Source: Tubulanus polymorphus (Eukaryota > Animalia > Nemertea). Taken from it: a DNA stretch of 64,000 bases. The notes beneath the pieces were generated by a model, which did no database searches, was not told where the DNA came from, and saw only the letters and a list, made by a program, of their open reading frames with translations. The stretch lies in the NCBI RefSeq assembly GCF_964204645.1, contig NC_134034.1, positions 8,444,962 to 8,508,961 of the forward strand, read 5' to 3'. The position numbers and the translations under genes are program-made. This document shows positions 1 to 46,942 of the stretch, in pieces; position 1 is the first letter of the stretch; every line of letters begins with the position of its first letter.

Positions 1-112
1 ACATTAAAAGTGTCAGTAAAGTGTGATTGAAATAATTCATATATATATGAATAACATATAAATGAATAACTTTTAAAATCAATTTTAATAAAAAATTTAG
101 TATTAAAATGGA
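1..112 (+). repeat. Inner part of left TIR of copy A, including the ATGGA start of pPolB
   Basis: Reverse complement of 14878-14989. Confidence 0.93.
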
Positions 113-3100
113 AGCAAATAAGTACTACTGTTCAACATGCCAAATCAATATAGATAAATCTCAAAAAGCAAGACACAATAAAACTAAAACACGTTTAGAG
201 AATAAATTAAAGTTAAAATATAAAGATGATATATTAGAAACTAAATTAGATGAATTAAAGAATGAAAAAGAAATATATAAATGTGATACGTGTAATCAAT
301 CATTCAGTGATAAAAGATATTATAAAGAACATTTAAAATCTAAAAGTCATATTAGAAATAAGAATAATGATATTTTAGGTGAGGATCATTTTGATAAAGA
401 TAATAATAAGAAACAGAAGACAATTAAAAGAATAAAAAATAAATTAAACAATAAAAGACCATATATGGAAGATGTAAGAAATTATATTAATTCATTAGAT
501 AATAAAAAAGAAATAGAAATAACCGAAGCATTTAAAAGTGATATTGGTCCAGCAGCTATTGAGTTTAAAATTCATAAAGGAAAAACATTAGGAGAAAATA
601 AAAAACATTTAGAAAATATGAAAAATATTATAAAAATAATTACATATGTTGAATACCCTAAAATTAGTATATCTTCTAAAGTAAAGTTTATAAAATCTGA
701 AGATAAACAAATATATAATGTAAATTCTCATTCACAACATATTATTTCAAAACAACATATAGATGATAAATTAGATAAATGTTATAAAATAGAAGAGAAA
801 TATTTTGAAGGATCAGGTTTAATATTTGATGTAATAATATTTATGACTTACATGTTTATAACACAAAATATAATAAGTTAACTAAATCAAAACCAATTGA
901 TGAAAATAATTTATCATATTATAAAGATGATAGTATAAATGGATCAAGTTATATCCAATTACCATTTAGAACTAATGCTGTTATAAATGTACAAAATTCT
1001 GATGATAAATGTTTTCTATGGTCAATTATTAGTTGCTTACATCCTGCAACTGATAATTTTTGTAGAGTATCAAAGTATAAACCATTTGAAAACAATTATA
1101 AGATAGACAATTATCCTGTTAGAATTAAAAATATGCCAAAAATAGAAAGAGATAATAATATAAAGATAAATGTGTTAAAATGTGTTAAATGTGATAAATT
1201 TAGTCAAATTGCCAAAAACAAAAGGTAATAATATTAAACATCATACATTAGAACCTCTATACTTATCAAAAGATTATGATTCAAATGATGTTATAGATAT
1301 ATTATATTATGAGAATCATTATATGTGGATTAAAAGAATTGATTTATCTTTTAAATCAGAAAATGATTTTGATAATAAAATATACCTATGTAGAAAATGT
1401 TTACATAAATTCATAACTGAAAGTGCATTATTAAATCATAAACAATTATGTGATAATCATGATTATTGTAAAATAGTTTTACCAAATGAAAAGGATAAAA
1501 TATTAGAATTCAAAAAATATGATTACAAGAATAAAATACCATTTGTAATATATGGAGATTTTGAATCATTAAATAAAGAATTAACTGATCAAGATAGAAA
1601 AGAAATATATTATAAAAGAAAGAAATTCTAATGAAAATGATATAATTGATTATTGAAATCCCCTAATAACAAATACAATTAAAAAGATTCATCAATCAGC
1701 TGCAGCTTTTGGATTATATATCAAATCTGATTATCCAGAACTAATTAAAAGTGAATATCATTATAGAAATGAAAATGTTATCAATCATTTTTGTGACTTA
1801 TTAATTGAGTATGAAATCAAATTTAGTAAACTATTAGATACAAAAATAGAAATTATAATGACGGAAGAAGATAAAGAAGAATTTGAGTTTGCAGATAAAT
1901 GTTTTTATTGCGAAAAGATATTTAATTTTAGAGATGAAAAAGTAAGAGACCATAATCATTTGAATGGAAAGTTTAGAGGCGCAGCGCATGAGAATTGTAA
2001 CTTATAAGCTAAGAAAATTAACTTTGTTCCAATAATATTTCATAATTTATCAGGATATGACGCACATTTATTTATCAAACAGTTATGCCATAAAATAGAA
2101 GAAATCAATAATGAAAAAGAAAGATTAAATTAAGATAGATCAAAAGATAAAATACCAACTTATAAATTTAGAATGTTAGCTAAAACATCTGAGAATTATA
2201 TATCATTCCAATTTGGGTGTCTAAGATTTATAGATTCATATAGATTTTTAAGTAGTTCATTAGATAACTTATCAAAATCATTAGTTGATGATTAATTAAG
2301 AATATCAAAACAACACTATCCAAATAATGATGATTTTCAATTAATGAGATATAACGGTGCAATTCCATATTCTTTTTATAAATCACATAATGATTTTAAC
2401 ATAACTGAATTATTAAAAGAACAATTTTATGATGAATTAAACAATGAATATGTTGAAAATGAAGTCTATAATAGAACATTGAATATTTGGAATCATTTTA
2501 AAATGAAAAATCATGGACAATTAGCAGATTTATATTTAAAATCAGATGTATTATTATTATCGGATATATTTGAAAGGTTTAGAGATGTAAACCTAAAATA
2601 TTTTAATATTGATCCTTGCCATTGTTATTCTAGCCCAGGTCTAACTTGGGATTGTGGTTTAAAATTTACAGATATAAAAATGGATTTGTTAACAAATATA
2701 GATCAATTATTATTTGAAAAATCTATAAGAGGAGGAGTTTCAGGTGTATTAGGTGATAGATATTTCAATGTAAATGATAATCCTGGATATAAGTTATTAT
2801 ATATAGATGCAAATAATCTATATGGTTGGGCAATGATGGAACCACAACCTTATGGAGTATTTGAAATAAGTGAAGTTTTACAACATGAAAATAATGATAA
2901 ATTTGATTGGAAGAAAAGAATTCTAGATATAGCAGATGATTCAGAGACTGGTTACTTTTTTGTTGTAGATTTAGAATATCCTGAAAACATTAAATTTAAA
3001 TCTAGAAATCTAGCATACTGTCCAGAACATAAAACTGTGACACATGAAGAATTATCAAATTATAAAAAAGAATTAAACCCGAAAATCATATTCATACAGA

Positions 3101-4416
3101 AAAGTTAATGGTAACTCAGGAAGATAAATATAATTATGTAGTACATTATAGAATGTTAAAGATTTATCTAAAACAAGGAATGATCCTTAAAAAAGTACAT
3201 AGATATATTTCATTTAGTCAATCTAAATGGTTAGAAAAATATATAGATTTTAACACCAAACAGAGAACTAAAGCTAGAGAAAGATTTCTTCAAGTTAATG
3301 AATAATGCATTCTATGGTAAGACTTGTGAAAATATTAGAAATAGAAATGATATTGAGTTAGTAATGGTAAAAGCATTAGCCATTTACAAACATATCCTAA
3401 ATTTATGGGCAACAAAATATTTGATGAAAATTTAGCTGCAGTTAAAATGAGGAGAACATCAATGAAATTTAATAAACCAATTTATGTTGGTGCGTCAGTT
3501 TTAGAATTATCAAAGTTATTATTGTATAAATTTTACTATAACGTATTACAACCTCATTTTGGAGAAAAACATATAGAAATCTTATATTTCGATACTGATT
3601 CTTACATATTAACCCTTTCAGTGCGTCTACACCGCAGTGCGGTGTATAAATCGGTGATGGATTTTGCTAGTACACCGCACTGCGGTGTATTGATGTAATT
3701 AGTAATTTGTAATTATCTCTATTGAAAAATGGCAGCAAGTGTCAAACATAGTGAAATACTAGTAACTAACGATACACCGCACTGCGGTGTAGACGCACTA
3801 TAGTGGTATTCCCATTGTTCAACACACTAGGGTGGAATTTTTTAGAATTTTCAAATTTTCTCCAGCACTATAGGGTATTAATTAGTCAGCACTGAAAGGG
3901 TTAAAGATAAAAACTAATAACATAACTGATGATTTAAAAACATTAAAACATCATTTTGATTTCAGTAACTATCCTAAAGATCATGAATTGTTTAGCAATG
4001 ATAATAAAAAAGTTCCCGGGAAGTTTAAGGATGAATTAGGTGGTGAAGAAATGATAGAGTTCATTGGTATTAGATCTAAAATGTATTCATATAAAACTAA
4101 AGAACATGAAGCTAAAAAGTTAAAAGGAATAACCAAAAGTGTAGTAGAAAAGAATATTCATTTCAAAGATTACATCAATTGTATATTCAATGAAGAAGTT
4201 AGAAAACATAAGATGAGATGTTTTAGATCTGAAGATTATGAAATGTTTATTGAAGAGATAGAAAAGATAAGTCTAAACCCATTTGATGATAAAAGATATA
4301 TTTTAGATGATGGAATTCATACAGTTGCATATGGTTGCAATTTAGATGTATACTTAAAATTTAAAAGAGAAGAAACAAAAGAGAAGGAAATAATGAAAAG
4401 GATTCTAGCGTGTTAA
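108..4416 (+). pseudogene. pPolB: Protein-primed family B DNA polymerase (pPolB), fragmented
   Basis: ORF pieces 108-881, 1182-1631, 2344-3108, 3108-3305, 3405-3698 and 3988-4416 are colinear with 42513-46555. Motifs YGDFES, YIDANNLYG and YFDTDS are present. Interrupted by a MITE. Confidence 0.93.
3613..3900. mobile_element. piggyBac-type MITE (288 bp) inserted in pPolB
   Basis: TTAA TSD at 3609-3612 and 3901-3904; TIR CCCTTTCAGTGC...GCACTGAAAGGG; the empty site CATATTAAAGATAAA is present in copy B near 46036-46050. Confidence 0.92.
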
Positions 4417-4468
4417 TCAAATTTTAATAAAAATATGAATTATAATTTAGTAAAAATATGTATAATAA

Positions 4469-5137
4469 ATGGAACCAGAACAACCACAAACTATCAATAT
4501 TACAAATAACACTGGTGTCATAAACATATACTACAAGAAGTGTTCTAAATGTGAATTAGATGAAGTAGCTATAACAGAATTTAATAAGCGTAAGATTAGC
4601 AAAGATGGTTTTCAATATTGCTGTAAAACTTGTATTAAACTATATACCAAACAATATCGAGAAGATAATAGAGAAGCTTATAATGATTATATGACAGAAT
4701 ATATGAGAGAAAGATATAAAACATATCTTAATTTTAGATTGAAACAATGCTTAAGATCTAGATTAACACAATTATTCAACAAAGAAACACATTCAGAAAC
4801 ACTATCTAATTTATTGGGTTGTTCAGATGAATTTCTAAAATCCTGGATTGTTCATCAATTTGATGATGAAATGAATATTAATAATTATGGGGATTATTTT
4901 CATATTGATCACGTGTTACCGATATCTAAATTTAACATGAGTGATGAATACAATAAAAAACTAATTTGGAATTGGAAGAATTTAAGTCCTCTTGAAAAGA
5001 AAGAAAATAAAATAAAATTTAATAAACTAGATTTACAGTTATATTTGGATCAACTGGATAAAGCAAAGAAATTTATTGAATTATGGAATAATGATCCACA
5101 TAATGAACAATACGTTGAGTCTTTAATAAGTGGTTAA
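4469..5137 (+). CDS. HNH-type endonuclease with N-terminal CxxC..CxxC zinc finger (NCLDV-like family)
   Basis: CSKC/CKTC, LLGCS..FLKSWI..QF, HIDHVLPIS..WKNL.PLEKKEN motifs; intact ORF. Confidence 0.8.
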   Translation: MEPEQPQTINITNNTGVINIYYKKCSKCELDEVAITEFNKRKISKDGFQYCCKTCIKLYTKQYREDNREAYNDYMTEYMRERYKTYLNFRLKQCLRSRLTQLFNKETHSETLSNLLGCSDEFLKSWIVHQFDDEMNINNYGDYFHIDHVLPISKFNMSDEYNKKLIWNWKNLSPLEKKENKIKFNKLDLQLYLDQLDKAKKFIELWNNDPHNEQYVESLISG

Positions 5138-5345
5138 AGAATAATATAATTCAAATAAAAGATATTAAAAAAACAATAACTTCAACTAGCTAGTGAATTC
5201 TCTTATATTTTTAATATTTTCTTTGGCAATTCTTGTTAACACTAGATTAAATAGATTTTGATAAGATTAGTATCAATAACTTAACTAACTAGCATTATTT
5301 TATAATACTTATATTATTTTTTTCTCACTTTTTTCTCTAATATAA

Positions 5346-5950
5346 ATGTCAAAGAAATCTAATAAGAATAGTATTAATATTGAAAAAACGTTAGATGATT
5401 TAGGTATTAGTGATAATAAGGATATCCAACCAAAATTTGAAATAATATTAATTGTTATATTGATTATGAATACTACTTATATTGTAAACACCATCTTGAA
5501 TTACTAATTGCTAGCGGAAAGTGTAAGGAATTCCTAACTAAAATAATAACTTTTCAAGAATTAGACTCTATGAAACCAGATAAAGTAATAAAACATTTCA
5601 AAATATATGAAGAAGCTAGATTAGCCCGAATAAATGATTCTATTTCAGATAGTATTGTCAAATGTTATTCAAAATTATGTAACCGGTTAATGTCAATTGA
5701 TGATGAAAATGAATTATATAGTGATTTGAAAAATGACTACTTAGTTATGACTGAATTACAAAAATGGGTTGGTTACGCTTCATTTCAATTAGGATCGGTT
5801 ATGACATTAATTTCTACTGGTGTCATAACATTTTAGAATATCAAACCTATAGAATATAAATCAGGTAAGAACGAAACAGATGGCGCCGTACGACCAAACG
5901 GTGAAACAGAAAATGAATCAGAACAAAAATTAACTAAAATAAATGAGTGA
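5346..5950 (+). pseudogene. Conserved Polinton hypothetical protein (homolog of 57263-57865), disrupted
   Basis: Starts MSKKSNKNSI at TAAATG; frameshift and stop relative to copies B and C. Confidence 0.85.
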
Positions 5951-6341
5951 TGGTATTGCCGTACGGCACCCACACAGTGATGTTAAGAAAAAGCCTAGAT
6001 CAGAGAAACAAATTAAATGGGCAAGAGAATTAGGTAAAAGATCTGCAGAATTAAAAAAAGCTAAGAAAAAGAAATTAACTGATATAAATGAATCACAGAC
6101 TTTATCTGATATTGATTCAAATAATGATCGATCTAATAGATTCAGCACAGCTGCATCTCATAATAAATTATGTATTACAATTGGATTAGTAACAGTTATT
6201 ATATTCTCTGGTGTAATATATAAATATAAGTATAGATCTGATGATAAAGATGATTCCAATGATAATAAACCTATTATACCAGAAAATAAGTCAAATCATA
6301 AAGTCATTGAAACTAAATCTAAATTATTATTAATGGATTAA
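5943..6341 (+). CDS. Small basic protein with one TM helix (homolog of 56884-57270)
   Basis: RSEKQIKWARELGKRS motif; hydrophobic ITIGLVTVIIFSGVIY. Confidence 0.8.
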   Translation: MSDGIAVRHPHSDVKKKPRSEKQIKWARELGKRSAELKKAKKKKLTDINESQTLSDIDSNNDRSNRFSTAASHNKLCITIGLVTVIIFSGVIYKYKYRSDDKDDSNDNKPIIPENKSNHKVIETKSKLLLMD

Positions 6342-6347
6342 AATAAG

Positions 6348-7438
6348 ATGAAAAAAGAGCAATATTTAAGAGATTTATATTATAACCCAGAAAGTGAAGT
6401 ATCATATTCTAGCGTTACAGAATTATGGGATAAAATTAAATCTGATAAAGAAATAGGTGATATAAAATATAGTGAATTAAGATTATGGTTACAAAATCAA
6501 CCAACATATCAAATACACAAGAAAATGGATAAACTTATTTAACAAGAAAAGTTATGGTTTCATATATCGATCAACAATGGCAAGCTGATTTAATTGATAT
6601 GAATTACTTAGAAGAACACAACAAAGGATATTTCTGGATACTGAATGTTATAGACATATTCAGTAGATACGCATGGTCAATTCCAATCAAAAATAAAACT
6701 GGTATAGAAGTGACAAATGCTTTTTAATCAATATTTAAAGAAGCTATTCCAGATAAGATACAATTTGATGAAGGTAAAGAATTCTATAACAAACATTTTA
6801 AAAAACTATTATCTGATAACGATGTAGATTATTTTTCAACACACTCAGATAAAAAAGCATCTATTATAGAAAGATTTAATAAAACATTGAAAACTAGAAT
6901 GTGGAAATATTTTACTGCTAATGAAACATATAAATATATCGATATATTAGATGATTTGGTGAAAGGTTATAATAATATTAAACATAGTTCTATAAATATG
7001 AAACCTATACAAGCTAGAAAAGAAGATAATTCAGAAATAGTTTGGAATAATTTATATGGTGCGTTTCTTACATATGATTTCGGTGAACCTAGATTTAGAA
7101 TAGGGCAACACGTAAGAATAATTATATATAGAAAAACATTTTATAAAGGTTATACCCCAAATTTTACTGAAGAAATATTTAAGATTAAAAAGATAATATT
7201 AACTAAACCTTTTGTTTATAAATTAGAAGATATAAAAGATGAAGAAATATTAGGTTATTTCTATGAACAAGAATTATCACTTGTACCAAACCCAGATGAA
7301 ATAGAATACAAAATAGAAAAAGTATTGAAAACAAAAACTCTTAAAGGAAAAAAGTATTCTTTGGTGAAATATAAAGGGTACGATGATAAATTTAATGAAT
7401 GGATTTTATGTAGTAAGATTAAAAGAATAAATGAATAA
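6348..7438 (+). pseudogene. INT: Retroviral-like (rve) integrase with C-terminal chromodomain, disrupted
   Basis: WQADLIDM, QFDEGKEF and IERFNKTLK DDE motifs across a frameshift and a stop; YKIEKVLK...VKYKGYDDKFNEWI chromodomain. Confidence 0.92.
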
Positions 7439-7986
7439 AGATTTATTTATATTTGAACCGCAATATGTTAGTTACTGGAGTAACCAACTGTGGTAAAACA
7501 CATTTCATATTAGACTTGTTAGAAACTGTTTATAAGAATCATTTTGATAATATAATATTATTCTGTCCTACTTATGAAATGAATAAAACATATAATAGAG
7601 ATATAGTTAAGATAAAAAAGTTTATTATATTAGATCCTAAAACAGTAAAAGATTATTAAAACATTATTCATTATAGATGATTGCGCAAATTTACATGATT
7701 CAAAAGTGATTTATGTTTTCTAGCTTTCTCTGGGAGACATTTTGGGATAACAACATGGGTTTTAAATCAAAAATATAATTCAATTGTTAAAGACTTTAGG
7801 GAGAATATAAGGTTTCTAGTTTTATTCTACAATAAAGATAGAAAATCAATGCAACAATCTCTGGAAGAAAATCAAATTATACCTACTGAATTACATGATG
7901 AATATATGAATAAATTAAAGAATAATAAAGGTTCCAAATTACTTCTGAGACTACAATTTCCATATGAATATAAGTATATAAAATAA
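7431..7986 (+). pseudogene. A32/FtsK-like packaging ATPase, disrupted
   Basis: GVTNCGKT Walker A; IIDDCA and SGRH in shifted frames; homolog of 55185-55799. Confidence 0.9.
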
Positions 7987-7987
7987 G

Positions 7988-8551
7988 ATATTTTAAGTAT
8001 TAATGTATTAGATACGTATTAAGTACGTATTAAGTACGTATCAAATACGTATTAAGTACGTATTAAGTACGTATCAAATACCTGAATTCTTAAAACCCCC
8101 TTTTTTATTTACTATTATTTTATAAAATTTTCAACCAATTTATTTTTATTTTTCAACATATATATGAATAAGTTTGAAAATAATAAAGGTTATTTATTAT
8201 TATTGAGGTTTCAATATAAATTTTAAAAAAAATTATTATATAAGGTATTTTAAGTATTAATGTATTAGGTATGTTTTAGATACGTATTAAATACGTATTA
8301 AATACGTACTAAATACGTATTAAATACCTTAATACTTAAAACCTTTTTTATTTACTATTATTTTATACAATTTTCATCCATTTTAAATTGGTTGAAAATA
8401 ATAAAGGTTATTTATTATTACTGAGGTTTCAATTTAAATTTTTAAAAAAATTATAATTTAAGGTATTTTCAAATAATATGTATTAGATACGTACTAAATA
8501 CCTTAATACTTAAAACCCCTTTTTTATTTACTATTATTTTATACAATTTTC
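7988..8551. repeat. Central array of about 3 palindromic units (~220-250 bp) with TACGTATTAA(G/A) subrepeats, at the convergence point of copy A
   Basis: Units begin near 7988, 8243 and 8461; GGTATTTTAAGTATTAA...TTAATACTTAAAA(A)CC arms enclose the TACGTA repeats. Confidence 0.85.
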
Positions 8552-9673
8552 GTGTTTTGTAGTTTTTTTCCCAGAACCATGTAATGAAATATCCTCTGTG
8601 GTTCTAAAATCTAACCATAGTGCGTATTTATTACCGGTATGATAATCAATTTGATTAATATTACAATTTTCAGATGATTTTACTTTTTCATTCATAAAAT
8701 GTTTTCTAATTTCTGGCCATTGATCTATCATTCTCATTCCTTGACAAAATATTTTATTTGCTATTCCTTCGATAGTTATTTATACTTTTGTTATTTCAGG
8801 ATTATAATATTTATCAACCTGTATTGCACCATTAGAATATGTTGCAATAGTAAAAAATATTAATCTACCTTTAATAGATCTTCTTGGGAAGTTAATATTC
8901 TCATTAATTATTTCATCATTTGCATTTATAGTTACAGTTTTAAATTTATCAATATAATCATATAATAATGAAAATCCTTGATTGTATTGAGTTTGAATTG
9001 TGTTAGCAATATTTTCATCAGTTACTGTATCATATTCTAAACATATATTCGATAAATTATAACCCATATCTTTAACAACGCTAGATAATACAATTTCATT
9101 TACAGGAGCAAATGTTATCTCGAATATAACATCTTCTTGAATTGCGTATTTATATAAAGGTGCATTATTATTTATCAATTCAAAATCTAATGGAATTTTA
9201 TATTTGCTTCCATAAATCTTTTTTATCAAATTATCTGCGGTACGAGTTATTATTGCGTCATTAGCTCCTGATCTTAATTTATTTTGGTTTTCTGATTGGA
9301 TGCCTTGAAATATCATATTATTTCTATTTTCTTTTGTTAACCATAAATCTTTATAATGCATAAATAGATTATAATCATCTAATGAGAAAACTGTTTCTGG
9401 ACCAATCTTTATAGATAATTTTTTAATCAAATATCTTCCAACATTATCGACCACATAATTATTATCATGACCAGTGACTTTTATATCGGCTGATAAATAA
9501 ATACTATTTGGAACATAAAAAGTATTTTGTGTTGATCTAGGGATTCTAACATATAAAGTTTCATCAGGATTACTATTAGAAGGATTATGAGTAATTATAT
9601 GATGTGATCTTTCTGCTTTAATAGCATTAGATATTCTAGAATTCTTAGAAGGACTTATATAACTCCCACTCAT
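8552..9673 (-). pseudogene. MCP: Major capsid protein, frameshifted and 3'-truncated
   Basis: Highly similar to 52016-53263; the C-terminus after KKLQNT is replaced by the central repeat. Confidence 0.8.
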
Positions 9674-9758
9674 TTATTTAAGAAAAAAAATTAATTATCT
9701 ATTTTTTATCATGTTTATTTTTTATTATGTTTTCTTGATATTTTTTTATTAATATACA

Positions 9759-11166
9759 CTAACCCATATTCACTAACCCAAAAATAATAGCACTTACAGC
9801 TGTAATATAAAATAAAATAATATGTTCAGCAGCAAAGTTAATTATGTTTCCTGCAGATTTCAATATAAAACCAATAATTGATGCAATAACTCCGGGTAAT
9901 GCTGCAGCAGATTTTTTAGATAGTTTCCTTAAATATTTTGCTAATTTTTTTAAACCATCCTTAACTTTATCTTGTATAGAATTATTATCATTCGGGGGTT
10001 TATCTGGTTTATTGGGAGTAGGTGTAGATTTCAGTGAATTTGATATAGCTAAACCTATTGTTGTGAATACCATAGTTACAGCTGTTAGAATTGAAAGAAT
10101 TGTTATACCTTCTTATTTAAATAATAATTTTATTCTATCTTTCAATGATATTTAAGAATTTGGTTTTATCAACAAATCTTTAAAAATAACTTTAAATCCA
10201 TCGTTCTAAATCAGACTTTTATTGTTCTATTTCTTCATTTGCATTAGTTAATTCTTTTTCTAAAAATCTAATTTTAATATCCCTTTTACTTTTTTCATGC
10301 GCAATTTTATCAACTGATTCTTGCATACCTTTAATTTCTCTACGTGTTTGTTCAGGAAATGCTTCTAATTCATCATCAGTTAAATCAAATAATCCTTTTT
10401 CTAGTAAAGATTGTATTCGATTTATTCCAGTTTCAGTACCGGGTGTATCTAAAACACTATTCATCTCTTCTTCAAAAGAATTCGTTGTATCCAGTAAGTT
10501 ATCTAAACGTTTTCCTAATTGTAATCGACTTGAATCATTATCAATTTGTTGAATATCTCTTCTCGATGTTTCTGTTCTAAATTATTATTGATTGTTTCAA
10601 ATAAGTCATTAATTCTTTGTTTAAATACTCTTTTATTTTGATTTATTTCTTCTTGTGTTACATCTTCTGGTTCATTACTATTAAAACTTATTCTTTTAAT
10701 TCTAGATGATTCTAAATTACTCAAAGTTGATTCCGCTAATATTTTGTTTTCACGTTTATAAGTGATATTAATATAATAATCATCTTTCGAATGATAATAA
10801 TATTCACCATTATCTAAAAGTTTTAATTAATTCTCTTACTAAAAGTCTAGCACCTCTATCATTGATATTATATCCAGATATTTCAAATACAGGTTGTAAT
10901 TTTAGAATAAATTTATTATATTCTTAATTTTTTTAAAATAAATATGAATCTTCATTTTCAGGATTTATTCTCGATCTAGTTCTTCTATCATATTCATCTG
11001 TTGATGGGGCTTTAGAACCACTATCTGCTAAATTAGAATTATACGCGGATGAATTATCATCATAAATATCAGTTTCACTAAATTTGGGTTGTGGTTTATC
11101 AGGTATAAATCCTTCATTATCATTTCCCATGACTTTCATTGGAATATCTTCTACAACTTCTGTCAT
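9759..11166 (-). pseudogene. Coiled-coil/membrane protein (homolog of 50534-51995), fragmented
   Basis: Fragments share AYNSNLADSGSKAPSTDE and KSAAALPGVIASI with copy B. Confidence 0.82.
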
Positions 11167-11188
11167 TTACATAATAAAAAAATTAAAA

Positions 11189-12414
11189 TTAAAAATATAA
11201 TATTCCTCCGATTACAATTCCTATGCAAGTTATAGCTAATTTAGCATTTTCATGGGATTTATTATCATTATCAGTTTTAATTATTTCATGTTGAATAATA
11301 TCAGTTTTACCATTTTCTGTAGTATTATAATCGTTTATTTTAGAATCATTATTTAATTTTATATTCTTAGTTTTAGTTTCTGTTGATTGAATATGTTTTT
11401 TATTTTTTTCACCTTCCATTAATTTTGGAGCAGTAATAATCTTTTTATTTATATCATTTAATCCAAATGAATTATTGATTGTTGCAGTCTTAATAAAATT
11501 TTTATTACCAATCATATTTCCCATCTTTAATACTAAATCATTAGAAATAATTAATAGATTAGGGCCTATACAATAATTTAATCTAATATGTGATTTATCT
11601 AAATAATTTTGATATCTTACTATATTTTCTGGAATCGATCTATTTTTATCATTATGAATTGAATTTTCAAATAATACTTTGAATTGTTTCTGCACATCGA
11701 ATGAAGTATTATCATTTCCAACTATTGGGGATCTTGTTTCAACTTGAGCACCTAAAATACATATCAAATAAGTTCTAATTGATTGATTTATTCTTTGTAT
11801 ACCTGATTTTGTAAAACCTTCACTATTTTCTGAAATAAAATTAATCCAACCATTATTATTATCAATTTTATAATTATGATAAGCTCCAATTCTATGCATA
11901 TAATCAATTCTTTTTATTTCATACTGTTCACCAATACCTTGTAATTTACCATGCGCTCTAAAATGGGATTTAATATTTATATCCGGGTAAAGGACATTCT
12001 AATTCATTTAATATTATTCTGATTTGAAAATATGTGTGAAATCTAAATATTGTGTGAATTAATTTTAAATCAGAATAATTCAAATTTTCATCTAAGTTAT
12101 TTAAATGATCATTCCAACTTATACCACAACCAGTTGTTGCACAATAAACAGCAAAATTTAATTGATTCTGCCAATATTTCATATTAGATTTTATTTTATA
12201 TATTTGATATTCATCCCGAGTAAAAGTAACTTCATATGCATTAAATATATTTTCCATTTTAGAAATAAAAAACTGTGTTTCAGTAACATAAATTTCTAAA
12301 TTAGTTAATGAATTTAAAACTAAATTTTTATATGTAATATTTTTTTTTAAAATCTATTGCAGGAATATTATATTTAATTGATTTATTATATTGGAAAGCT
12401 TTTGGAAACCCCAT
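11189..12414 (-). pseudogene. Conserved Polinton protein with WQNQLNFAVYCATTGCG motif and C-terminal TM, frameshifted
   Basis: Homolog of 49216-50517. Confidence 0.85.
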
Positions 12415-12430
12415 TTATATAATAAAAAAA

Positions 12431-12864
12431 TTAATAATTTATTAATTCTTTTAATAATTTATCTTGTTCTTCAACTGTTATATGACCAATTAAACTCATT
12501 ATATAATCTAGTGTATTCTTTAATTTATTAATTTCTTTTATATAAGTTTTAATTTTTCCTTTATTACTTTTTATATTTAATTTTGAACTTAAAGCGGTTA
12601 AAACACTTGATGATAATCCTAACACACCAATTGATATAACTAAAGGTGTTAATGGACTGAATATTGCTAGAAATGTTATTACAGAACTAATTGTAACCGA
12701 ACCACTGATAATAAAATAATATATAATTTTACGTTTTAAATATTTTTTCTTTTTATCTTTAAGTCACTTTCAAATTCTAATATTTGTTTTTCTAAATATA
12801 TTTTTAATTTAGTTTTATTTATATCATGAGGAATAATATCAATATTATCAAATTTATCATCCAT
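12431..12864 (-). pseudogene. Two-TM protein (homolog of 48765-49199), frameshifted
   Basis: Nucleotide colinearity with copy B. Confidence 0.82.
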
Positions 12865-12884
12865 TTATTTAACAAAAAAAATTA

Positions 12885-13307
12885 TTAATTAGTAAATTTA
12901 TATGCTACAAATATTACAATAACTGTGTCACCTAAAATCCAAATTATTTCATATTTCTGTTGTTCTTTACTTGGGGTATGATAATCTGATAATTTAGGTT
13001 TGTATAGATGTAATTTTTCTTTATTGGTTACTGCGTTATATAAACTCATTGCATCATCAACTGATTGAAAATCTCTATGTGAAATCTTCTGATCATATAA
13101 TTCTTTGTTAATATAATCCATATTGTTTTGCCTCTTTTCTCTGTATTCCTCTGCAGCTTTATTATATTTCTCTAATGCTAAGTTATGTCTTTTTTGTTCT
13201 GATAATGATCCATTTTTATCAATGTGCTTAAATAAATAACCACCACCAGTAAATGCTAAAGCGTTAACAATTGCTGAACCTATTATAGTTATAACTGCAG
13301 AAGCCAT
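12885..13307 (-). CDS. Conserved small protein with hydrophobic N-terminus and C-terminal TM
   Basis: Intact homolog of 48323-48745; GSAIVNALAFTGGGYLF, KRHNLALEK. Confidence 0.85.
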   Translation of the reverse strand: MASAVITIIGSAIVNALAFTGGGYLFKHIDKNGSLSEQKRHNLALEKYNKAAEEYREKRQNNMDYINKELYDQKISHRDFQSVDDAMSLYNAVTNKEKLHLYKPKLSDYHTPSKEQQKYEIIWILGDTVIVIFVAYKFTN

Positions 13308-13310
13308 TTA

Positions 13311-13559
13311 TTAAGTAATAAAAAAATTATACACTTCTTTTAAGGGAGGAATATATTTTTGTTTTTCCAAATAATCAATAGCTAAATTAGATAAAGTAAC
13401 TGCTAATGTTAATTCTAAAATATCATTTATATCAAATCTATCAACATTAACACTTCTCATTTTAAATAATTTTTTTAATACCATTGAATACCCAACAGTT
13501 CCAACTGATAGTAAGGCTTCATTATATAATCCAGTTATTATCCACTTATTATCACTCAT
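13311..13559 (-). CDS. Small hydrophobic protein (homolog of 48076-48297)
   Basis: Near-identical protein; TAAATG start. Confidence 0.78.
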   Translation of the reverse strand: MSDNKWIITGLYNEALLSVGTVGYSMVLKKLFKMRSVNVDRFDINDILELTLAVTLSNLAIDYLEKQKYIPPLKEVYNFFIT

Positions 13560-13566
13560 TTATTTA

Positions 13567-13894
13567 TCAAAAAAATTACCATCATCATTACATTTAGTTA
13601 TCTTTTTTATGATTAATTCAACATTTATTTCATTACTACTTTTATGATTATCATATATTTTGGATAATATGTTTTTAATATCATCGATAATTCCATTTTT
13701 ATTTAATATTCTAAAGGTGTTTTAATGAAATCAATTACTTTTTCTATATTATAATTTTCTTTATTAATCATTGATGCATTGTTAAATGATTTACGTTTAA
13801 TATCAGTAATTACATCATTTAGTTTAATTCTCATTTCTTTACCATGTTTAAAATCAAACCCAAAACATATACTCGGTCCAACAGTTATATTCAT
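13567..13894 (-). pseudogene. Hypothetical protein MNITVGPSICFG (homolog of 47715-48068), truncated
   Basis: N-terminus matches copy B; homology continues past the stop at 13703. Confidence 0.75.
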
Positions 13895-13911
13895 TTATAT
13901 AGTGAAAAAAA

Positions 13912-14520
13912 TTACTCTGTACATCTTATAACTAATTCATGAATTACAGGGAAATTATTTAAATCAATTAAATATCCATTATGATTGGATCTTATCTAAA
14001 ACTATTAAATTGAGGAATACAAGGTTTAAAATCACATTCTGTTAAATTATAATTTATTTGCGTTCCGAATTCTTTAACATTCTTCAATGGTAAAAATATT
14101 TAATAAACCAGAATTACAAGTTATATCTTTAGTTGCTTCGAATGTTTTGTAGGATCGATTAAATTGCAATAAATGTAAAAATGTGTGTAAGGTATTAAGT
14201 TTGGTATAGCAACATCAATATTTTTAAAAGATCTATCTGGAGGAATTCCTAACAGTTTAGATATAGGTTTTTTTACCATAAATTTATGTTTTTCACTATT
14301 AGACAACCTTATCTTTATTCTATCAGAACTATTATACACTATTATATATACTATTATAAACTCAGATATTGTAAAATGAGTTACATAAACTTATATTTAC
14401 TAATTTCAAATCTACACAATTCTTAAATTCTCTATCTAATTGTACTAGTAAATTATGTGATTTATAATTTGTAAGTCTTCAAGAATCAACAAATAGTCTG
14501 TATTCTTTTAATTCTACCAT
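13912..14520 (-). pseudogene. mCP: Minor capsid (penton) protein, deleted and frameshifted
   Basis: Homolog of 46943-47698; THFYIYCNLIDP. Confidence 0.8.
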
Positions 14521-14534
14521 TTATTTTACATATT

Positions 14535-14882
14535 TTTTTCGAAATCTATTTCATGGTGCCCTTTTTCATTCTTACCTTTGTACATGAAATAGAAATCTCC
14601 CGAACATAATTCTTCTAAATCTTCACTTGATAATCTATGAAATCTATCTGGTAAATATGTTCTGAATTTATGTGCATTTCCTTTTAATCCTTCATATTTT
14701 AAGTGGATAACTAATTTATCTCCATATTTGTTAGTATGAATGCTGTATCAATATTTGTAATTAGATATTTCTTATGGAATTGTTAATTCTTTTAACTTCT
14801 TAAACTAATAATCTACAGATTTGATGTTTGAAGTATCTTTTATTCTGTTTAAGAATTCACTGTTTACTTGTTTACTCTCCAT
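14535..14882 (-). pseudogene. MESKQV protein (homolog of 46584-46925), frameshifted; starts inside the right TIR
   Basis: Nucleotide colinearity with 41373-41726 and 46584-46925. Confidence 0.82.
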
Positions 14883-15107
14883 TTTAATACTAAATTTTTT
14901 ATTAAAATTGATTTTAAAAGTTATTCATTTATATGTTATTCATATATATATGAATTATTTCAATCACACTTTACTGACACTTTTAATGTTTAAAAATCTA
15001 ACTCATACAAATATAAATATTGAAATATGTTTAAAATATATCTATCCATCTATCTATAATAGCTCGACCTCCGACCTCTGGCTTGAACCCCTACTTTTCC
15101 TATTACT
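14878..15107 (-). repeat. Right TIR of copy A, inner part, ending in a half terminal hairpin ...CCTATTACT
   Basis: 14878-14989 is the reverse complement of 1-112; 15061-15107 resembles the outer arm 60692-60739. Confidence 0.85.
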
Positions 15108-15278: not shown

Positions 15279-15481
15279 TCACTCTTTTATTTTATTCATT
15301 CATAAAAATATATTTCATATAATATATATTTTATTTATAATAATAATAATATCTCTGTATTATTCTATTTTATTTTATTTTATTTATTTATAAAAATATA
15401 TTTCATTATTTATTTATAATAATAATAATAATGATATGAAATTCATGTAAATTATGTTCATATATATATGAATATTTTAAG

Positions 15482-15630
15482 AGTATATAGGAATTAGTTG
15501 TTTCATATCAAAGGTTGAAGGGGTTCATAAAAAATGAAAAAATAAATTCGAGCGTGCGAGAATTTTTTTTTTCATTTTCATGAGCTCGACCTTTCGACCT
15601 TTGATTTGAAACAACTAATTTCTATGTACT
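15482..15630. repeat. Terminal imperfect palindrome (149 bp) of copy A
   Basis: AGTATATAGGAATTAGTTGTTTCA...TGAAACAACTAATTTCTATGTACT; loop TTCGAGCGTGCGAGAA; preceded by AATATTTTAAG as in B and D. Confidence 0.88.
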
Positions 15631-40990: not shown

Positions 40991-41019
40991 GCATTAACAA
41001 AACCGACCCTTGCCCACGT

Positions 41020-41329
41020 GTCTTCAGTTTCTTATCATTATCTTTGTCAAAATAATCTTCACCTAAAATTCATATTTCTAATATAACTTTTAGATTTTAA
41101 ATGTTCTTTATAATATCTTTTATCACTGAATGATTGATTACATGACTGTTTCACATTTGTATGTTTCTTTTTCATTCTTTAATTCATCTAATTTAGTTTC
41201 TAATATATCATCTTTATATTCTAATTTCAATTTATTTTCTAAATGTGTTCTAGTTTCATTGTGTCTTGCTTTTTGAGATTTATCTATATCAATTTTACAT
41301 GTTGAACAGTAGTACTTATTTGCTTCCAT
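41020..41329 (-). pseudogene. pPolB: pPolB N-terminal fragment (zinc fingers)
   Basis: MEANKYYCSTCKIDIDKSQKARH; homology continues to ~41020. Confidence 0.88.
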
Positions 41330-41372
41330 TTTAATATCCAATTTTTTATTAAAATTGATTTTACATATTTTC

Positions 41373-41726
41373 TTATTCGAAATCTATTTCATGGTGCCCT
41401 TTTTCATACTTACCTTTGTATATGAAATAGAAATCACCAGAACATAATTCTTCTAAATCTTCACTTGATAATCTATGAAATCTATCTGGTAAATATGTTC
41501 TGAATTTATATGTATTTCCTTTTAATCCTTCATATTCTAAGTGGATAACTAATTTATCTCCATATTTGTTAGTAACTGTATCAATATTTGTAATTAGATA
41601 TTTCTTATGAATTGTTAATTCTGTAAACTTCTTAAATTTATAATCTACAGATTTTACATTTGTGATATCTTTAATTCTATCTAGAAATGATTTGTTGTTC
41701 TCACTGTGTACTTGTTTACTCTCCAT
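41373..41726 (-). CDS. MESKQV protein, possible OB-fold ssDNA-binding protein
   Basis: Intact homolog of 46584-46925; the function is inference only. Confidence 0.75.
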   Translation of the reverse strand: MESKQVHSENNKSFLDRIKDITNVKSVDYKFKKFTELTIHKKYLITNIDTVTNKYGDKLVIHLEYEGLKGNTYKFRTYLPDRFHRLSSEDLEELCSGDFYFIYKGKYEKGHHEIDFE

Positions 41727-42380
41727 TTTAATAACATATTTTTGATTAAAATAAATTATGGAAGTTATTAGATTAATATTTTAAGAGTAATAGGGAATAA
41801 GTTGTTCTAGATTAAAGGTTGAGAGGTTGAGTGAGTAGAAAATGAAAAATAAATTCGAGTGTGCGAGAATTTATTTACTCACATGTAAACTTACTTACAT
41901 GTAAATGCAGAATTAAATCAGAAATATATTTAAAGCCGAGGTATTCAACTAGACTCCAGTAGACAGAACCAGCAAGGCAGGCATTTTTCTTTTCTATCAA
42001 AATGATTTAACCTGAAATCATAAGATAGTAGAAGTCATCTGCATCTATATTCTACTGTAACTCTTTCGGCAACCACATACAATGTCCTTGGACGATTTGT
42101 GGATAATTTGTTATGTTATTTTGTATGATTATGTATACAGAATGTAAGATATATATATGGTTAAAAAAACAAACAACATCATCGGCACCAGTAGATTGTG
42201 TCAATCGCCGAGCGAGATCTCAGGGCTAGTTTAGTACCCCAATTTAGTCTCTTTTTTCGTTGTGTGATTGATGGCGGGTTCGCATCACACGCGCGCGGCA
42301 CCGGTATATTGCGCGATTCCCGGCGGAACCGCGCCATAGTGGGACACCGACAATACGTGCATGCAGTGCGGATAGCTATT

Positions 42381-42626
42381 AGTAATAGGGATAATGGGCT
42401 TTTTAGCTTGAAAGCCCATTATCCCTATTACTCTTAAAATATTCACATAAATGAATAACATTTAAATCATTGAACTTCTAAAATCAATTTTAATAAAAAA
42501 TATAGTATTAAAATGGAAGCAAATAAGTACTACTGCCCAACATGTAAGATAAGTATAGATAAATCCCAAAAAGCAAGACACAATAAAACTAAAACACATT
42601 TAGAGAATAAATTGAAACTAGAGTAT
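42381..42626 (+). repeat. Left TIR of copy B with a collapsed 52-bp hairpin (42381-42432)
   Basis: Reverse complement of 60278-60739 apart from the deleted hairpin centre. Confidence 0.92.
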
Positions 42627-45600
42627 AAAGATGATATATTAGAAACTAAATTAGATGAATTAAAGAATGAAAAAGAAACATACAAATGTGATACATGTAA
42701 TCAATCATTCAGTGATAAAAGATATTATAAAGAACATTTAAAATCTATAAGTCATATTAGAAATAAGAATAATGATATTTTAGGTGAAGATTATTTTGAT
42801 AATGATAACGATAAGAAACAGAAGACAATTAAAAGAATAAAAAATAAATTAAACAATAAAAGACCATACATGGAAGATGTAAGAAATTATATTAATTCAT
42901 TAGATAATAAAAAAGATATAGAGATAACCGAAGCATTTAAAAGTGATATTGGTCCAGCAGCTATCGAGTTTAAATTTCATAAAGGTAAAACAATAGAAGA
43001 AAATAAAAAACATTTAGAAAATATGAAAGAAATAATAAAAATAATTACAAACGTAGAATATCCAAAAATTAGTATATCAGTTAAAGTAAAAATAAAATCT
43101 GAAGATAAACCAATATATAATATAAATTCTCATTCACAACATATTATATCTAAACAACATATAGATGATAAATTAAATAAATGTTATAATGAAATAAAAA
43201 CTAAAATAGAAGAGAAATATTTTGAAGGATCTGGTTTAATATTTGATGAGATAATATTTATAACTTTACATGTTTATAACACAAAATATAATAAGTTAAC
43301 TAAATCAAAACCAATTGATGAAAATAATTTATCATATTATAAAGAACCAGATATTGAAGCATCAAGTTATATTAAACTACCATTTAAAACTAATGCTGTA
43401 ATAAATGTACAAAATGAAGATGATAAATGTTTTCTATGGACAATTATAAGTTGCTTACACCCAGTTGAAGATTATAAACAACATAGTTTTAGATTAACTC
43501 ATTATAAACAATTTGAAAATAATTATAAGATAGATAAGTATCCTGTTAGAATTAAAAATATTCCAAAAATAGAAAGAGATAATAATCTAAAAATAAATGT
43601 ATTTGATTTAATCAAATTACCAAATACAAAAGGAAATAATATTAAACATTATACATTAGAACCTTTATACCTATCAAAAGATTATGATTCAAATGATGTT
43701 ATAGATATACTATATTATGAGAATCATTATATGTGGATTAAACAAATAGATTTATTTTTTAGAACAGAAAATGATCACCATAAAATATATCTTTGTAGAA
43801 AATGTTTACATAGATTCAGTAATGAAAGTACATTATTAAATCATAAACAACTATGTGATAATCATGATTATTGTAAATTAGTTTTACCAAATGAAAAAGA
43901 TAAAATATTAGAATTCAAAAAATATGATTACAAAAATAAAGTACCATTTGTAATATATGGAGATTTTGAATCATTAAATAAAGAACTAACTGATCAAGAT
44001 AGAAAAGATATATATTATAAAAGAAAGAAATTAAATTCTAATGAAAATGATATAATTGATTATTCAGATCCTATAATAACAAATACTATTAAAAAGATCT
44101 ATCAAAGTGCTGCAGCTTTCGGGTTATATATTAAATCTAATTATCCAGAACTAATTGAAAGTGAATATTATAATTACAGAAATGAAAATGTTATCAATCA
44201 TTTTTGTGACTTATTAATTGAATATGAAATAAGATTTAGTAAATTATTGAATACAAATAAAGAAATACTTATGACAGAAGAAGATAAAGAAGAATTTGAG
44301 TTTGCAGATAAATGTTATTATTGTGAAAAGATATTTAATTATAAAGATAAAAAAGTAAGAGACCATGATCATTTGAATGGAAAGTTTAGAGGCGCTGCAC
44401 ATGAGAATTGTAACTTACAAGCTAAGAAAATTAACTTTGTACCAGTTATATTTCATAATCTATCAGGATATGATGCGCATTTATTCATCAAACAGTTATG
44501 TCATAAAATAGAAGAAATCAATAATGAAATAGAAATATTAAATTCAAATAGATCAAAAGATAAAATACCAACTTATAAATTTAGAATGTTAGCTAAAACA
44601 TCTGAGAATTATATATCATTCCAATTTGGTTGTCTAAGATTTATAGATTCATATAGATTTTTAAATAGTTCATTAGATAACTTATCAAAATCATTAGTTG
44701 ATGATGAATTAAAGATATTAAAAGAATATTACCCAAATAATGATGATTCTAAATTAATGAGATATAAAGGAGCGATTCCATATTCTTTCTATAAAAATCA
44801 TAATGATTTTAACATAACTGAATTATTAAAAGAACAATTCTATGACGAATTAAAAAATGAATATGTTAAAGATGAAGTCTATAATAGAACATTGAATATT
44901 TGGAATCATTTCAAAATAGAAAATCATGGGCAATTAGTAGATTTATATTTAAAATCAGATGTATTATTATTAACCGATATATTCGAAAGGTTTAGAGATG
45001 TAAACCTAAAATATTTCAATATTGATCCTTGTCATTGTTATTCATCACCAGGATTAACATGGGATTGTGGATTAAAATTTACAGATATAAAAATGGATTT
45101 GTTAACAAATATAGATCAATTACTATTATTTGAAAAATCTATAAGAGGAGGTGTTTCAGGTGTATTGGGTGATAGATATTTCAATGTAAATGATAATCCT
45201 GGATATAAATTATTATACATAGATGCAAATAATCTTTATGGTTGGGCAATGATGGAACCACAACCTTATGGGATGTTTGAAATAACTGAAGTTTTACAAC
45301 GTGAAAATAATGATGAATTTGATTGGAAGAAAAGAATTCTAGATATTGCAGATGATTCAGATATTGGTTACTTCTTTGTTGTAGACTTGGAATATCCTGA
45401 AAATATTAAATTCAAATCTAGAAATCTAGCTTACTGTCCCGAACATAAAACTGTAACTCATGAAGAATTATCAAATTACCAAAAAAGAATTAAACCCGAA
45501 AATCATATTCATACAGAAAAGTTAATGGTAACTCAAGAAGATAAATATAATTATGTAGTACATTATAGAATGTTGAAGTTTCATTTGAATCAAGGAATGG

Positions 45601-46555
45601 TATTAAAAAAAGTACATAGATATATTTCATTTAGTCAATCGAAGTGGTTAGAAAAATATATAGATTTTAACACCAAACAGAGAACTGAAGCTAAAACTGA
45701 TTTTGAGAAAGATTTCTTCAAGTTAATGAATAATGCATTCTATGGTAAGACTTGTGAAAATATTAGAAATAGAAATGATATTGAGTTAGTTAGTAATGGT
45801 AAAAGGATAAGGCATTTACAATCATATCCTAAGTTTATAGGTAACAGAATATTTGATGAAAATTTAGCTGCAGTTAAGATGAGAAGAACTTCAATGAAAT
45901 TTAATAAACCGATTTATGTTGGAGCTGCAGTTTTAGAATTATCAAAATTACTAATGTATAAATTTTACTATAATATACTACAACCCATCTTGGAGAAAAG
46001 AATATAGAAATCTTATATTTTGATACAGATTCTTACATATTAAAGATAAAAACTGATAACATAACAGATGATTTAAAAACATTAAAACATCATTTTGATT
46101 TCAGTAACTATCCTAAAAATCATGAATTGTTTAGCAATGATAATAAAAAAGTTCCTGGGAAGTTTAAGGATGAATTAGGTGGTGAAGAAATGATAGAGTT
46201 CATTGGTATTAGATCTAAAATGTGTTCATATAAAACCAAAACTCATGAAGCTAAAAAGTTAAAAGGAATTACCAAAAGCGTTGTTGAAAAGAATATTCAT
46301 TTTAAAGATTACATCAATTGTATATTTAATGAAGAAGTTAGAAAACATAAGATGAAATGTTTAAGATCTGAAGATCATGAAATGTATATTGAAGAGATAG
46401 AGAAGATAAGTTTGAATCCATTTGATGATAAAAGATATATTTTAGATGATGGAATTCATACAGTCGCCTATGGTTGCAATTTAGATGAATATATAAAATT
46501 CAAAAGAGAAGAAACAAAAGAAAATGAGATTATGAAAAGGATTCTAACGTGTTAA
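42513..46555 (+). pseudogene. pPolB: Protein-primed DNA polymerase B with N-terminal C2H2 fingers and an endonuclease VII-like insert; single frameshift near 45985
   Basis: 1164-aa ORF with Exo motifs YGDFES, FHNLSGYD and YLKSDV; CYYC..RDHDH..GKFRGAAH..CNL; motif A YIDANNLYG; motif B KLMNNAFYGK. Motif C YFDTDS lies in the next frame (~46015), continuing to 46555. Confidence 0.95.
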
Positions 46556-46583
46556 TCAATTTCAATAAAAATTTGTATAATAA

Positions 46584-46925: not shown

Positions 46926-46942
46926 GAAAATATGTAAAATAA

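Follow-up and report, generated by a model that had tools for sequence, protein, structure and literature searches.

Alternative end-gene orders meeting at a recurrent upstream motif in a high-copy Polinton family of Tubulanus polymorphus

Element family and gene content

The window, a 64,000-nt stretch of Tubulanus polymorphus DNA (GCF_964204645.1, NC_134034.1, positions 8,444,962-8,508,961, forward strand), contains four pieces, designated A, B, C, and D, which all belong to a single high-copy Polinton family and are 85-93% identical (Table 1). B is complete, A is cut by the window start, and C and D are remnants. Terminal inverted repeats (TIRs) of the Polinton/Maverick type, with AG(T)..(A)CT ends and a 6-bp target duplication, are present, as are two further hallmarks of that group, namely a double-jelly-roll major capsid protein (MCP) and an A32 ATPase. 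The preliminary description had drawn the element ends short of their true positions; AGT...ACT palindromes located further out form the actual termini. An empty-site joint for B, with six shared letters, was found in 274 reads. Separately, 89,605 reads aligned to B, indicating a very high copy number for the family. The coding regions of A contain many stops and frameshifts, and D retains an intact MESKQV frame (117 aa) and a frameshifted pPolB 5′ end of ~310 nt.

Table 1. Positions of the Polinton copies and their features in the window.
Feature	Position	Strand	Remarks
Copy A	1..15107	+	Left end outside window; right terminus ..CCTATTACT at 15107
A-run promoter motif of A	77..112	+	Inner edge of left repeat, before pPolB
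A pPolB/HNH spacer	4417..4473	+	One partial and one HNH-type motif copy
A right repeat	14878..14989	-	Identical to 1-112; ends at ATGGA of MESKQV
Second terminal-repeat piece	15445..15630	.	149-bp palindrome, beyond first right terminus of A
Terminal AGT...ACT palindromes	42381-42432, 60472-60739, 15482-15630
Remnant D, 0.85 kb	41019..41876	-	TIR (half palindrome)>MESKQV>pPolB 5′ end
D MESKQV/pPolB spacer	41326..41372	-	MESKQV 3′ spacer, then pPolB motif; switch at TAAAAT
Target-site duplication GCTATT	42375..42380 (left), 60740-60745 (right)	+
Copy B, complete, 18,359 bp	42381..60739	+	Matching repeats, 6-bp target duplication
Protein-primed DNA polymerase B (pPolB)	42513..46555	+	1164-aa and 121-aa frames, broken near 46007
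B pPolB/MESKQV motif	46554..46588	+
MESKQV gene	46584..46925	+
Minor capsid protein (mCP), putative	46943..47698	+
Double-jelly-roll MCP	52016..53263	+	PBCV-1 capsid, E 7e-17
o334, zinc-finger ORF	53296..54300	+	A-run promoter; missing from A
A32-like packaging ATPase	55185..55799	-	PF04665, E 6e-13
rve integrase with chromodomain (INT)	55792..56877	-	Split in B; rve E 0.007
"HNH" gene and A-run promoter	59395..60091	-
First 38 pPolB codons fused to HNH-3′-like piece	60140..60391	-	Terminal-repeat extension; edge outside motif
268-bp imperfect terminal palindrome	60472..60739	.	Left end keeps only 52 bp (42381-42432)
Copy C	61226..64000	+	TIR>HNH>o200>o128>INT; cut by window end

The pPolB of B carries an endonuclease VII-like insert and shows DANNLY and KxxxNxxYG motifs, which we take to be patterns of protein-primed polymerase B; intact relatives are 1363-1365 aa long. 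Many pPolB relatives carry PF03175, for which B's own pPolB gave no match, and a PDB sequence search with a pPolB profile returned only weak zinc-finger matches. The MESKQV product, for which searches gave no match at E<=0.001, is likely, if weakly so, a small OB-fold single-strand DNA-binding protein; the top rows were mostly OB or ssDNA binders, including PRD1 P12. The product of the putative mCP gene is likely a minor capsid protein, as suggested by feature-based matches of 0.97-0.98 to Preplasmiviricota clusters, in one of which Sputnik V18/19 occurs in 26% of members. The INT orthologue of the metagenomic relative L003, 81-90% identical, matches PF00665 above the cut-off. The "HNH" gene, which would encode a putative nuclease, has no Pfam match; its name comes from the preliminary description and from a sequence motif. 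Low read depth over o334 indicates that few copies contain it.

An adenain-like cysteine protease is a usual Polinton gene and part of the adintovirus description. Since none was found by Pfam among the 19 ORFs of B, which may nevertheless include a remote homologue, the element is not filed as an adintovirus. The same 19 ORFs contain no recombinase besides the rve integrase, and an Rfam search gave no match. Scanning viral contigs with the MCP, an MCP alignment, the ATPase, and a MESKQV alignment yielded no relatives, and a scan of prokaryotic genomes yielded one distant locus.

Gene orders and their junctions

Protein mapping gives A the order TIR>pPolB>HNH>o200>o128>INT>ATPase><MCP..mCP<MESKQV<TIR, and the order in B is TIR>pPolB>MESKQV>mCP..MCP>o334><ATPase<INT<o128<o200<HNH<pPolB 5′ piece<TIR. 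The inversion after pPolB that had been reported between them is borne out: B 42447-46583 aligns with A 43-3612 and 3901-4445 in the same orientation, and B 60087-46554 aligns with A 4444-14913 in the opposite orientation, in seven blocks of 69-90% identity. The arrangements TIR>HNH in C and TIR>MESKQV>pPolB 5′ in D are likewise as first described. Of the four orders then counted, however, three are distinguishable, as that of C is indistinguishable from the right arm of B, and D is a 0.85-kb remnant. D matches an order seen in relatives, MESKQV>pPolB>HNH (order X), which is likely older than the other orders; the outgroup contigs end at or before INT, and the capsid arm of order X lies outside them. 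A pair of single inversions suffices to link the three orders, and both inversions have one of their ends at a terminal repeat (inversion distances X-A = 1, A-B = 1, and X-B = 2). The three represent 3/6 of the possible inward-pointing orders, one of them being inferred from relatives.

A 35-bp motif recurs, as had been noted, at the inner edge of the TIR and after the pPolB stop, with the A repeats ending at ATGGA and a further copy behind pPolB in B. It has eight matches in the window, all at the starts of pPolB, MESKQV, or HNH, and a stricter pattern has six, three of them in B, whereas none occurred in any of 200 Markov resamples generated from B. The motif copy of A HNH is a split variant missed by the eight-match pattern. 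The motif is likely the promoter of the end genes.

The further claim that every breakpoint lies in this motif stands for the four gene-order junctions, but several other breakpoints lie outside it: the edge of the B right repeat falls 114 nt inside pPolB, the MESKQV/mCP junction is outside the full motif, and so are the large A/B indels (289, 1291, and 1985 nt vs 501, 125, and 183 nt), except for the start of the B-only o334, which begins with a motif-like promoter. At least one breakpoint lies in coding sequence at an 8-nt match, which is not above chance (128/500 shuffles).

At the gene-order joints, hybrid promoters are found whose switch points lie in shared letters—ATGGA, AATCAATTT, and TAAAAT—so that the proposed exchange at a repeated promoter is supported by four junction types inside the motif. 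In the B pPolB/MESKQV motif, the last 11 nt agree at 10/11 positions with the HNH motifs of A and C and at 4/11 with that of A MESKQV, placing the switch at ATGGA; the C junction is TIR-type as far as AATCAATTT and HNH-type beyond. The D spacer resembles that of L005, with a score reached by 1/500 shuffles. The A pPolB/HNH spacer is the inversion breakpoint relative to B, and its adjacency also occurs in L002, L003, and L004. The joints are non-reciprocal, pPolB>MESKQV in B switching at ATGGA and TIR>HNH in C at AATCAATTT (one joint each). Both keep an HNH-type core. A single crossover would not produce this, and copy-choice is therefore favored. A pPolB 3′ remnant, considered for the tail preceding HNH in B, was rejected, its score being reached by 49/500 and 63/500 shuffles.

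The terminal repeats of A differ at 0/112 nt, identity stopping exactly at ATGGA; three differences lie beyond, in the coding starts. Those of B (42402-42626 and 60278-60502) are identical at 223/225 positions, extend 114 nt into pPolB, and then adjoin the HNH-3′-like piece. The copying of 114 nt of pPolB into the right repeat supports growth of terminal repeats into the first gene.

Origin of the orders

The orders had been interpreted as interconverting genome isomers, and herpesvirus genome segments do invert. Routine isomerization of this kind, with all orders made by motif recombination in each replicating population and then sampled by the genome, would account for the coexistence of several orders in one genome and in the reads of a second sample, for the representation of 3/6 orders, and for conflict among informative sites in o200-INT (BC 34, AC 31, AB 9), which fits recombination among copies. 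However, whereas herpesvirus-type isomerization yields otherwise identical genomes with alternative orders and reciprocal junctions, the copies of different order here are 7-15% apart, and the B and C joints, of which one each was examined, both have the HNH-type core. All 10 gene pairs compared gave pS of 0.15-0.36 and dN/dS of 0.05-0.37, as against 0/112 and 2/225 differences between the paired repeats of A and B. Such synonymous divergence under purifying selection indicates lineages rather than isomers of one genome. In addition, two of the supposedly scrambled junctions are common to relatives at 76% pPolB identity, B and C, which have the same order, share most derived HNH sites (15-17 vs 6-9), and the rve integrase is the only recombinase found. 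Trees of pPolB 5′, MESKQV, HNH, and o200-INT leave A, B, C, and D without resolved branching (A/B/D support 24-51). Terminal palindromes show no sign of flip-flop, four right-type ends compared by eye having the same arm inside. Isomerization is rather improbable, and the different orders probably represent infrequent rearrangements that became fixed in distinct lineages.

Relatives and reads bear on two other explanations. Mis-joining of a collapsed repeat family at the motif during assembly might be suspected from the very high copy number and from the absence of the exact D joint among the joints listed from reads. Against such an artefact, which is scarcely credible, two contigs (263 and 283 nt; X2 and X3) span the B joint with two differences, the C joint occurs in X1 and X3 contigs, and each copy has its own substitutions. 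Moreover, the MESKQV>pPolB junction of D is found in the metagenomic relatives L002, L004, and L005, the pPolB>HNH junction of A in L002 as well as two others, and TIR>pPolB in L006; the presence of the first two in intact relatives means that they are not assembly errors. Ectopic recombination between neighboring copies after insertion into the host chromosome could be read from four pieces in 64 kb of repeat-rich DNA, the truncation of C and D, and the compound right end of A. Overall it is very unlikely, and for A and B it is largely refuted: the B repeats match and its 6-bp duplication is intact, other samples contain joints of the B and C types in abundance, and joints of the A and D types are present in intact relatives that come from unrelated samples. 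In favor of the model proposed below, read depth in the second sample stays at 432-460 across pPolB/MESKQV, with a terminal-type promoter before MESKQV in 102 reads and a different, T-run upstream sequence before mCP in 81. Counting against that model, the A pPolB>HNH joint is absent among the six X5 loose ends listed, and 606 X5 reads diverge ~95 nt upstream of the HNH motif, indicating more structures than it covers.

The reading favored here, with moderate confidence, is that the three end-gene orders were joined at the repeated upstream motif by occasional copy-choice during replication and later fixed in separate lineages. The steps X to A and A to B would each take a single inversion, running from the inner edge of a TIR to the point behind the first gene, so that one terminal gene changes ends. 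During strand-displacement synthesis, the new strand would copy the first gene and jump between motif copies to the other terminal repeat, so that both repeats come to contain that gene. One gene copy would then be lost by deletion between two motif copies in direct orientation. In L002, a 17-nt copy of its own terminus lies between MESKQV and pPolB, which speaks for this reading. Which products survive probably depends on expression class, since the A-run promoter of an A-run gene is retained.

Selection could also suffice by itself, with illegitimate breakpoints arising anywhere and survivors keeping a promoter of their own class, in which case the motif marks the junctions without causing them. 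This is judged unlikely, though the non-motif breakpoints (60278, MESKQV/mCP, and the A/B indels), the TAAATG-type start needed by all viable genes (14/15), and the poor conservation of gene order between virophage types in the available text of one study (PMC8547959) speak for it. As no more than two or three events have to be assumed, selection at gene boundaries, and not homology, may explain why the junctions coincide with the motif. Switches inside shared letters that make hybrid promoters count against a pure filter, which would allow any point in the spacer. The spacers are merely 30-50 nt long and mostly motif, which weakens that argument.

Promoter classes and related systems

In B, 14/15 genes start in TAA(A)ATG, with two upstream classes, A-run for replication genes and T-run for the capsid arm, and the 35-bp motif is one class. 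The mCP promoter is the MESKQV 3′ spacer, unlike the T-run type of neighboring genes. The notion that any gene can occupy the terminal promoter holds for pPolB, MESKQV, and HNH, each found there in some copy, but only the A-run class is seen. The TAAATG-type motif is lineage-restricted (7/65 loci). In vaccinia promoters, TAAAT(G) overlaps the start codon, and T at -10 occurs in late but not intermediate promoters, as far as the available text describes (PMC11980589); the same start and T split recur in B's A-run and T-run classes, a likeness of sequence alone within a very AT-rich element. By analogy, the two classes hint that a cytoplasmic large DNA virus may transcribe the element. More tentatively, a poxvirus-like helper might do so through intermediate-type replication and late-type capsid promoters, the repeated promoter serving as a template-switch site that rotates polymerase, SSB, and nuclease through the ends. 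Among the literature titles and abstract openings listed by searches, neither promoter-anchored gene-order change nor TAAATG promoters in Polintons were found.

Polintons/Mavericks (Polintoviricetes) are likewise 15-20 kb long, with pPolB, rve integrase, A32 ATPase, double-jelly-roll capsid, AGT..ACT ends, a 6-bp target duplication, and two convergent gene arms (PMC8097293). In vertebrate Mavericks, as far as the available account goes, order is kept and only module orientation varies between species, unlike the order change here among closely similar copies within a single genome. Endogenous mavirus-like elements of Cafeteria (EMALEs) likewise have upstream motifs that are specific to each type and are interpreted as promoters of giant viruses, repeats that regenerate after truncation, and gene orders that differ between types; however, they are syntenic within type, have another capsid lineage and another motif, and the available text describes no promoter-motif breakpoints (PMC8547959). 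In butterfly polintons, 2-kb terminal repeats have grown over genes, giving the two-copy intermediate needed here, but the duplicated genes are hexon and protease, and the portion available describes no resolution into new orders (10.1101/2025.02.07.637071). Entomopoxvirus-associated Polinton-like viruses (PLVs) provide a precedent for ties between PLVs and poxviruses in animals, although "promoter" does not occur in the main text of that paper (PMC11296320), and together with Halocafeteria elements they are precedents for genes invading terminal repeats and for terminal palindromes (PMC11296320; 10.64898/2026.07.28.741278). In the available Halocafeteria text, palindromes go mostly with non-pPolB elements (10.64898/2026.07.28.741278), whereas here they go with pPolB.

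The steps of reshuffling are readable here at base resolution among close copies. Polinton-like viruses are mosaic, and gene-order change in them has been argued mostly from distant genomes. The family also offers a testable route, in which a repeated promoter provides homology, the terminal repeat extends across a gene, and one of the two copies then disappears. The two-class TAAATG promoters, if true, would give a direct handle on the transcriptional dependence of Polintons on a large DNA virus.

A high-copy Polinton family

The four pieces A, B, C and D belong to one AT-rich family (20–29% GC) within repeat-rich DNA of 30–44% GC, as seen by self-comparison of the window. The element is a Polinton; its host would be a eukaryote, probably an invertebrate animal. 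The complete copy, B, encodes the polymerase pPolB, a split rve integrase with a chromodomain, an A32 ATPase, and a double-jelly-roll capsid protein, and likely carries a minor capsid protein (mCP); no protease was found among its 19 ORFs. The product of the small gene MESKQV likely binds single-stranded DNA through a small OB fold: none of its fold matches reached E 0.001, the top fold rows were mostly ssDNA binders, and the nearest named feature cluster, phi29 SSB (0.85), is a lead only. "HNH" is a label from the preliminary description, the gene being without a Pfam match. Reads of another sequencing sample, X5, on B number 89,605, so the family is high-copy, with depths of ~30–80 inside the B-specific centre and ~240–1100 outside. 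The empty target site occurs in 274 X5 reads, so the host sequence into which B inserted is a repeat with many copies. B is flanked by D and C, each back to back with it at a distance of ~500 bp.

Features of the elements (window positions unless the metagenome locus L002 is named)
Feature	Position	Detail
Copy B, complete	42381–60739	target duplication GCTATT; termini AGT..ACT
Empty target site of B	42374/60740	6 shared letters
ORF of 80 aa	48075–48317	behind T-run promoter
1.3-kb insertion in B	58136–59396	behind HNH
289-nt palindromic insertion	3612–3901	within pPolB of A
Arm-convergence centre	A 7902–8551; B 54542–55145	tandem and palindromic AT-rich repeats, differing between A and B
Short telomere-like (CCCTAA)n run	60887–60905	between B and C
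Imperfect terminal palindromes	60472–60739; 42381–42432; 15482–15630; L002 190–446	carry inverted copy of AGT terminus
17-nt copy of own terminus	L002 948–964	between MESKQV and pPolB

Terminal palindromes have already been described elsewhere (10.64898/2026.07.28.741278). The window holds four AAAAATGAAAAA words, every one inside these palindromes; the words resemble poxvirus early promoters, which are A-rich with TG.

Gene orders and their joints

A and B are collinear across pPolB and inverted beyond it, and a shared motif, a 35-bp A-run sequence ending in ATGGA, stands at the pPolB, MESKQV, and HNH starts (eight matches in the window; a stricter pattern gave 0 in 200 resamples). The repeats of A are identical over 112 nt, stopping at ATGGA. 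Four orders had been proposed, but only three are distinguishable, since C shares the right-arm order of B and is cut by the window. Nor does every breakpoint fall in the motif, as had been claimed: the right repeat of B enters pPolB by 114 nt and is followed by an HNH-3′-like piece, and A/B indels, except at the o334 promoter, also fall outside it.

The pPolB>MESKQV joint of B was covered at an X5 depth of 432–460 across four bins (46483 to 46630) and spanned by X2 and X3 contigs with 2 differences; the joint between terminal repeat and HNH (60422>60096) was present in X1 and X3 contigs, and 102 X5 reads carried a terminal-type promoter ahead of MESKQV. A motif after the MESKQV stop, a weakly represented variant of the D joint, was found in 4 X5 reads with 3 starts. 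The A joint, pPolB>HNH, was absent from the 6 X5 loose ends listed (345 further rows lie beyond these), and the reads neither show nor exclude it. Relatives give independent support. Among the 80 metagenome loci retained out of 130, four (L002–L005) have 76% pPolB identity: MESKQV>pPolB was seen in L002, L004, and L005 (L003 begins within pPolB), pPolB>HNH in L002, L003, and L004 (L005 stops within pPolB), and a terminal palindrome precedes MESKQV in L002 and L004. In L006 (61% identity), the terminal repeat leads into pPolB. Thus, the D and A adjacencies exist in intact elements elsewhere.

The X5 sample also contains ~170 reads with a diverged pPolB C-terminus at 46409–46452, representing a second subfamily in the species. 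In 606 X5 reads, similarity to B breaks off at 60184, on the upstream side of the HNH motif and ~95 nt from it; the copies in this sample mostly have other sequence there. The records that contain the relatives P0046, P0133, and L001 bear bacterial or archaeal labels; contamination by eukaryotic DNA is probable there.

A likely two-class promoter system

TAA(A)ATG starts were found in 14 of 15 B genes (gene starts within 42513–60060), compared with 72 of all 719 ATGs (10%; P about 1e-13). Two upstream classes were distinguished: capsid-arm genes with a T-run and T at −10, and pPolB, MESKQV, HNH, and o334 with an A-run and A at −10. By the −10 position alone, T was found in o200, o128, and each of the 6 genes of the capsid arm that were scored, and A in pPolB, MESKQV, HNH, o334, mCP, and ATPase. 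The observation also takes in A, C, and D. L002–L004 show the same classes, save that MESKQV of L004 has A at −10 without the A-run; both genes of L006 have T at −10. TAAATG-type starts occur in at least half of the ORFs in 7 of 65 pPolB loci (those with at least three ORFs among 104 fetched), and the equally AT-rich L028, L100, and L048 are not among these; the feature is lineage-restricted. Vaccinia late promoters are described as having TAAAT(G) and T at −10, and intermediate ones as having TAAA without that T (PMC11980589); the resemblance of the motif classes is a likeness only. In virophages, shared promoters are an accepted sign of helper dependence (PMC8547959; 10.1101/2022.07.28.501842), and PLVs are reported to travel with entomopoxviruses (PMC11296320).

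The two-class system itself supplies the main rival explanation, namely that rearrangements, whatever their cause, survive only where each gene retains a promoter of its own class.

Lineages and the relocation of terminal genes

The copies had been regarded as isomers of one genome, but a pS of 0.15–0.36 in 10/10 gene pairs compared marks separate lineages. With dN/dS at 0.05–0.37 in the same pairs (approximate counting) and repeat differences at 0/112 sites in A and 2/225 in B, the divergence predates insertion and accumulated while the lineages were replicating. Derived HNH sites are mostly common to B and C (15–17 vs 6–9), site sharing across o200–INT conflicts (BC 34, AC 31), and trees leave A, B, and D unresolved; recurrence of a single order can be neither shown nor excluded.

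Order distances were computed from gene labels only, the capsid arm of order X being inferred. From X, the proposed older order (MESKQV>pPolB>HNH arm meeting the capsid arm), A would be reached by one inversion and B from A by another, each reaching a terminal repeat and transferring one terminal gene to the opposite end; X to B would take two. The end of the MESKQV promoter in B matches the HNH promoters of A and C at 10/11 nt and the MESKQV promoter of A at 4/11, so that B derives from a pPolB>HNH junction, in support of the proposed polarity. In A and B, mCP is the one scored gene of the capsid arm that lacks a T-run promoter, and 81 X5 reads place it behind another, T-run upstream sequence, as a derived MESKQV>mCP junction would predict.

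The switch points are AATCAATTT in the C joint and ATGGA in the B joint; since both keep the HNH core, they are, judged by these points, not two products of one crossover. Elements with pPolB are established to replicate via strand displacement. The non-reciprocal joints favour copy choice in a duplicate-then-delete form, of which the pPolB piece in the B repeat and the internal terminus copy of L002 are local signs. Butterfly polintons with gene-containing repeats are a reported precedent (10.1101/2025.02.07.637071). The HNH gene of L002 (5129) begins MESKQ, like the MESKQV gene of the window (46584), and the L002 orthologue of the latter begins MGGN; the first codons may perhaps have been swapped too.

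Module orientation is reported to vary between amphibian Mavericks (PMC8097293), and mosaicism of replication and capsid modules to be general (10.64898/2026.10.13.758929). Among the papers listed in literature searches, judged by title and opening of the abstract, none dealt with gene-order change anchored at promoters between closely related copies of a Polinton, or with Polinton promoters of the TAAATG type. The movement of terminal genes at a repeated promoter is real here and resolved to the base, on a smaller scale than originally claimed: three orders, two or three events, and at the level of lineages. Overall, an unexpected poxvirus-style promoter system accompanies terminal-gene relocation in this family.
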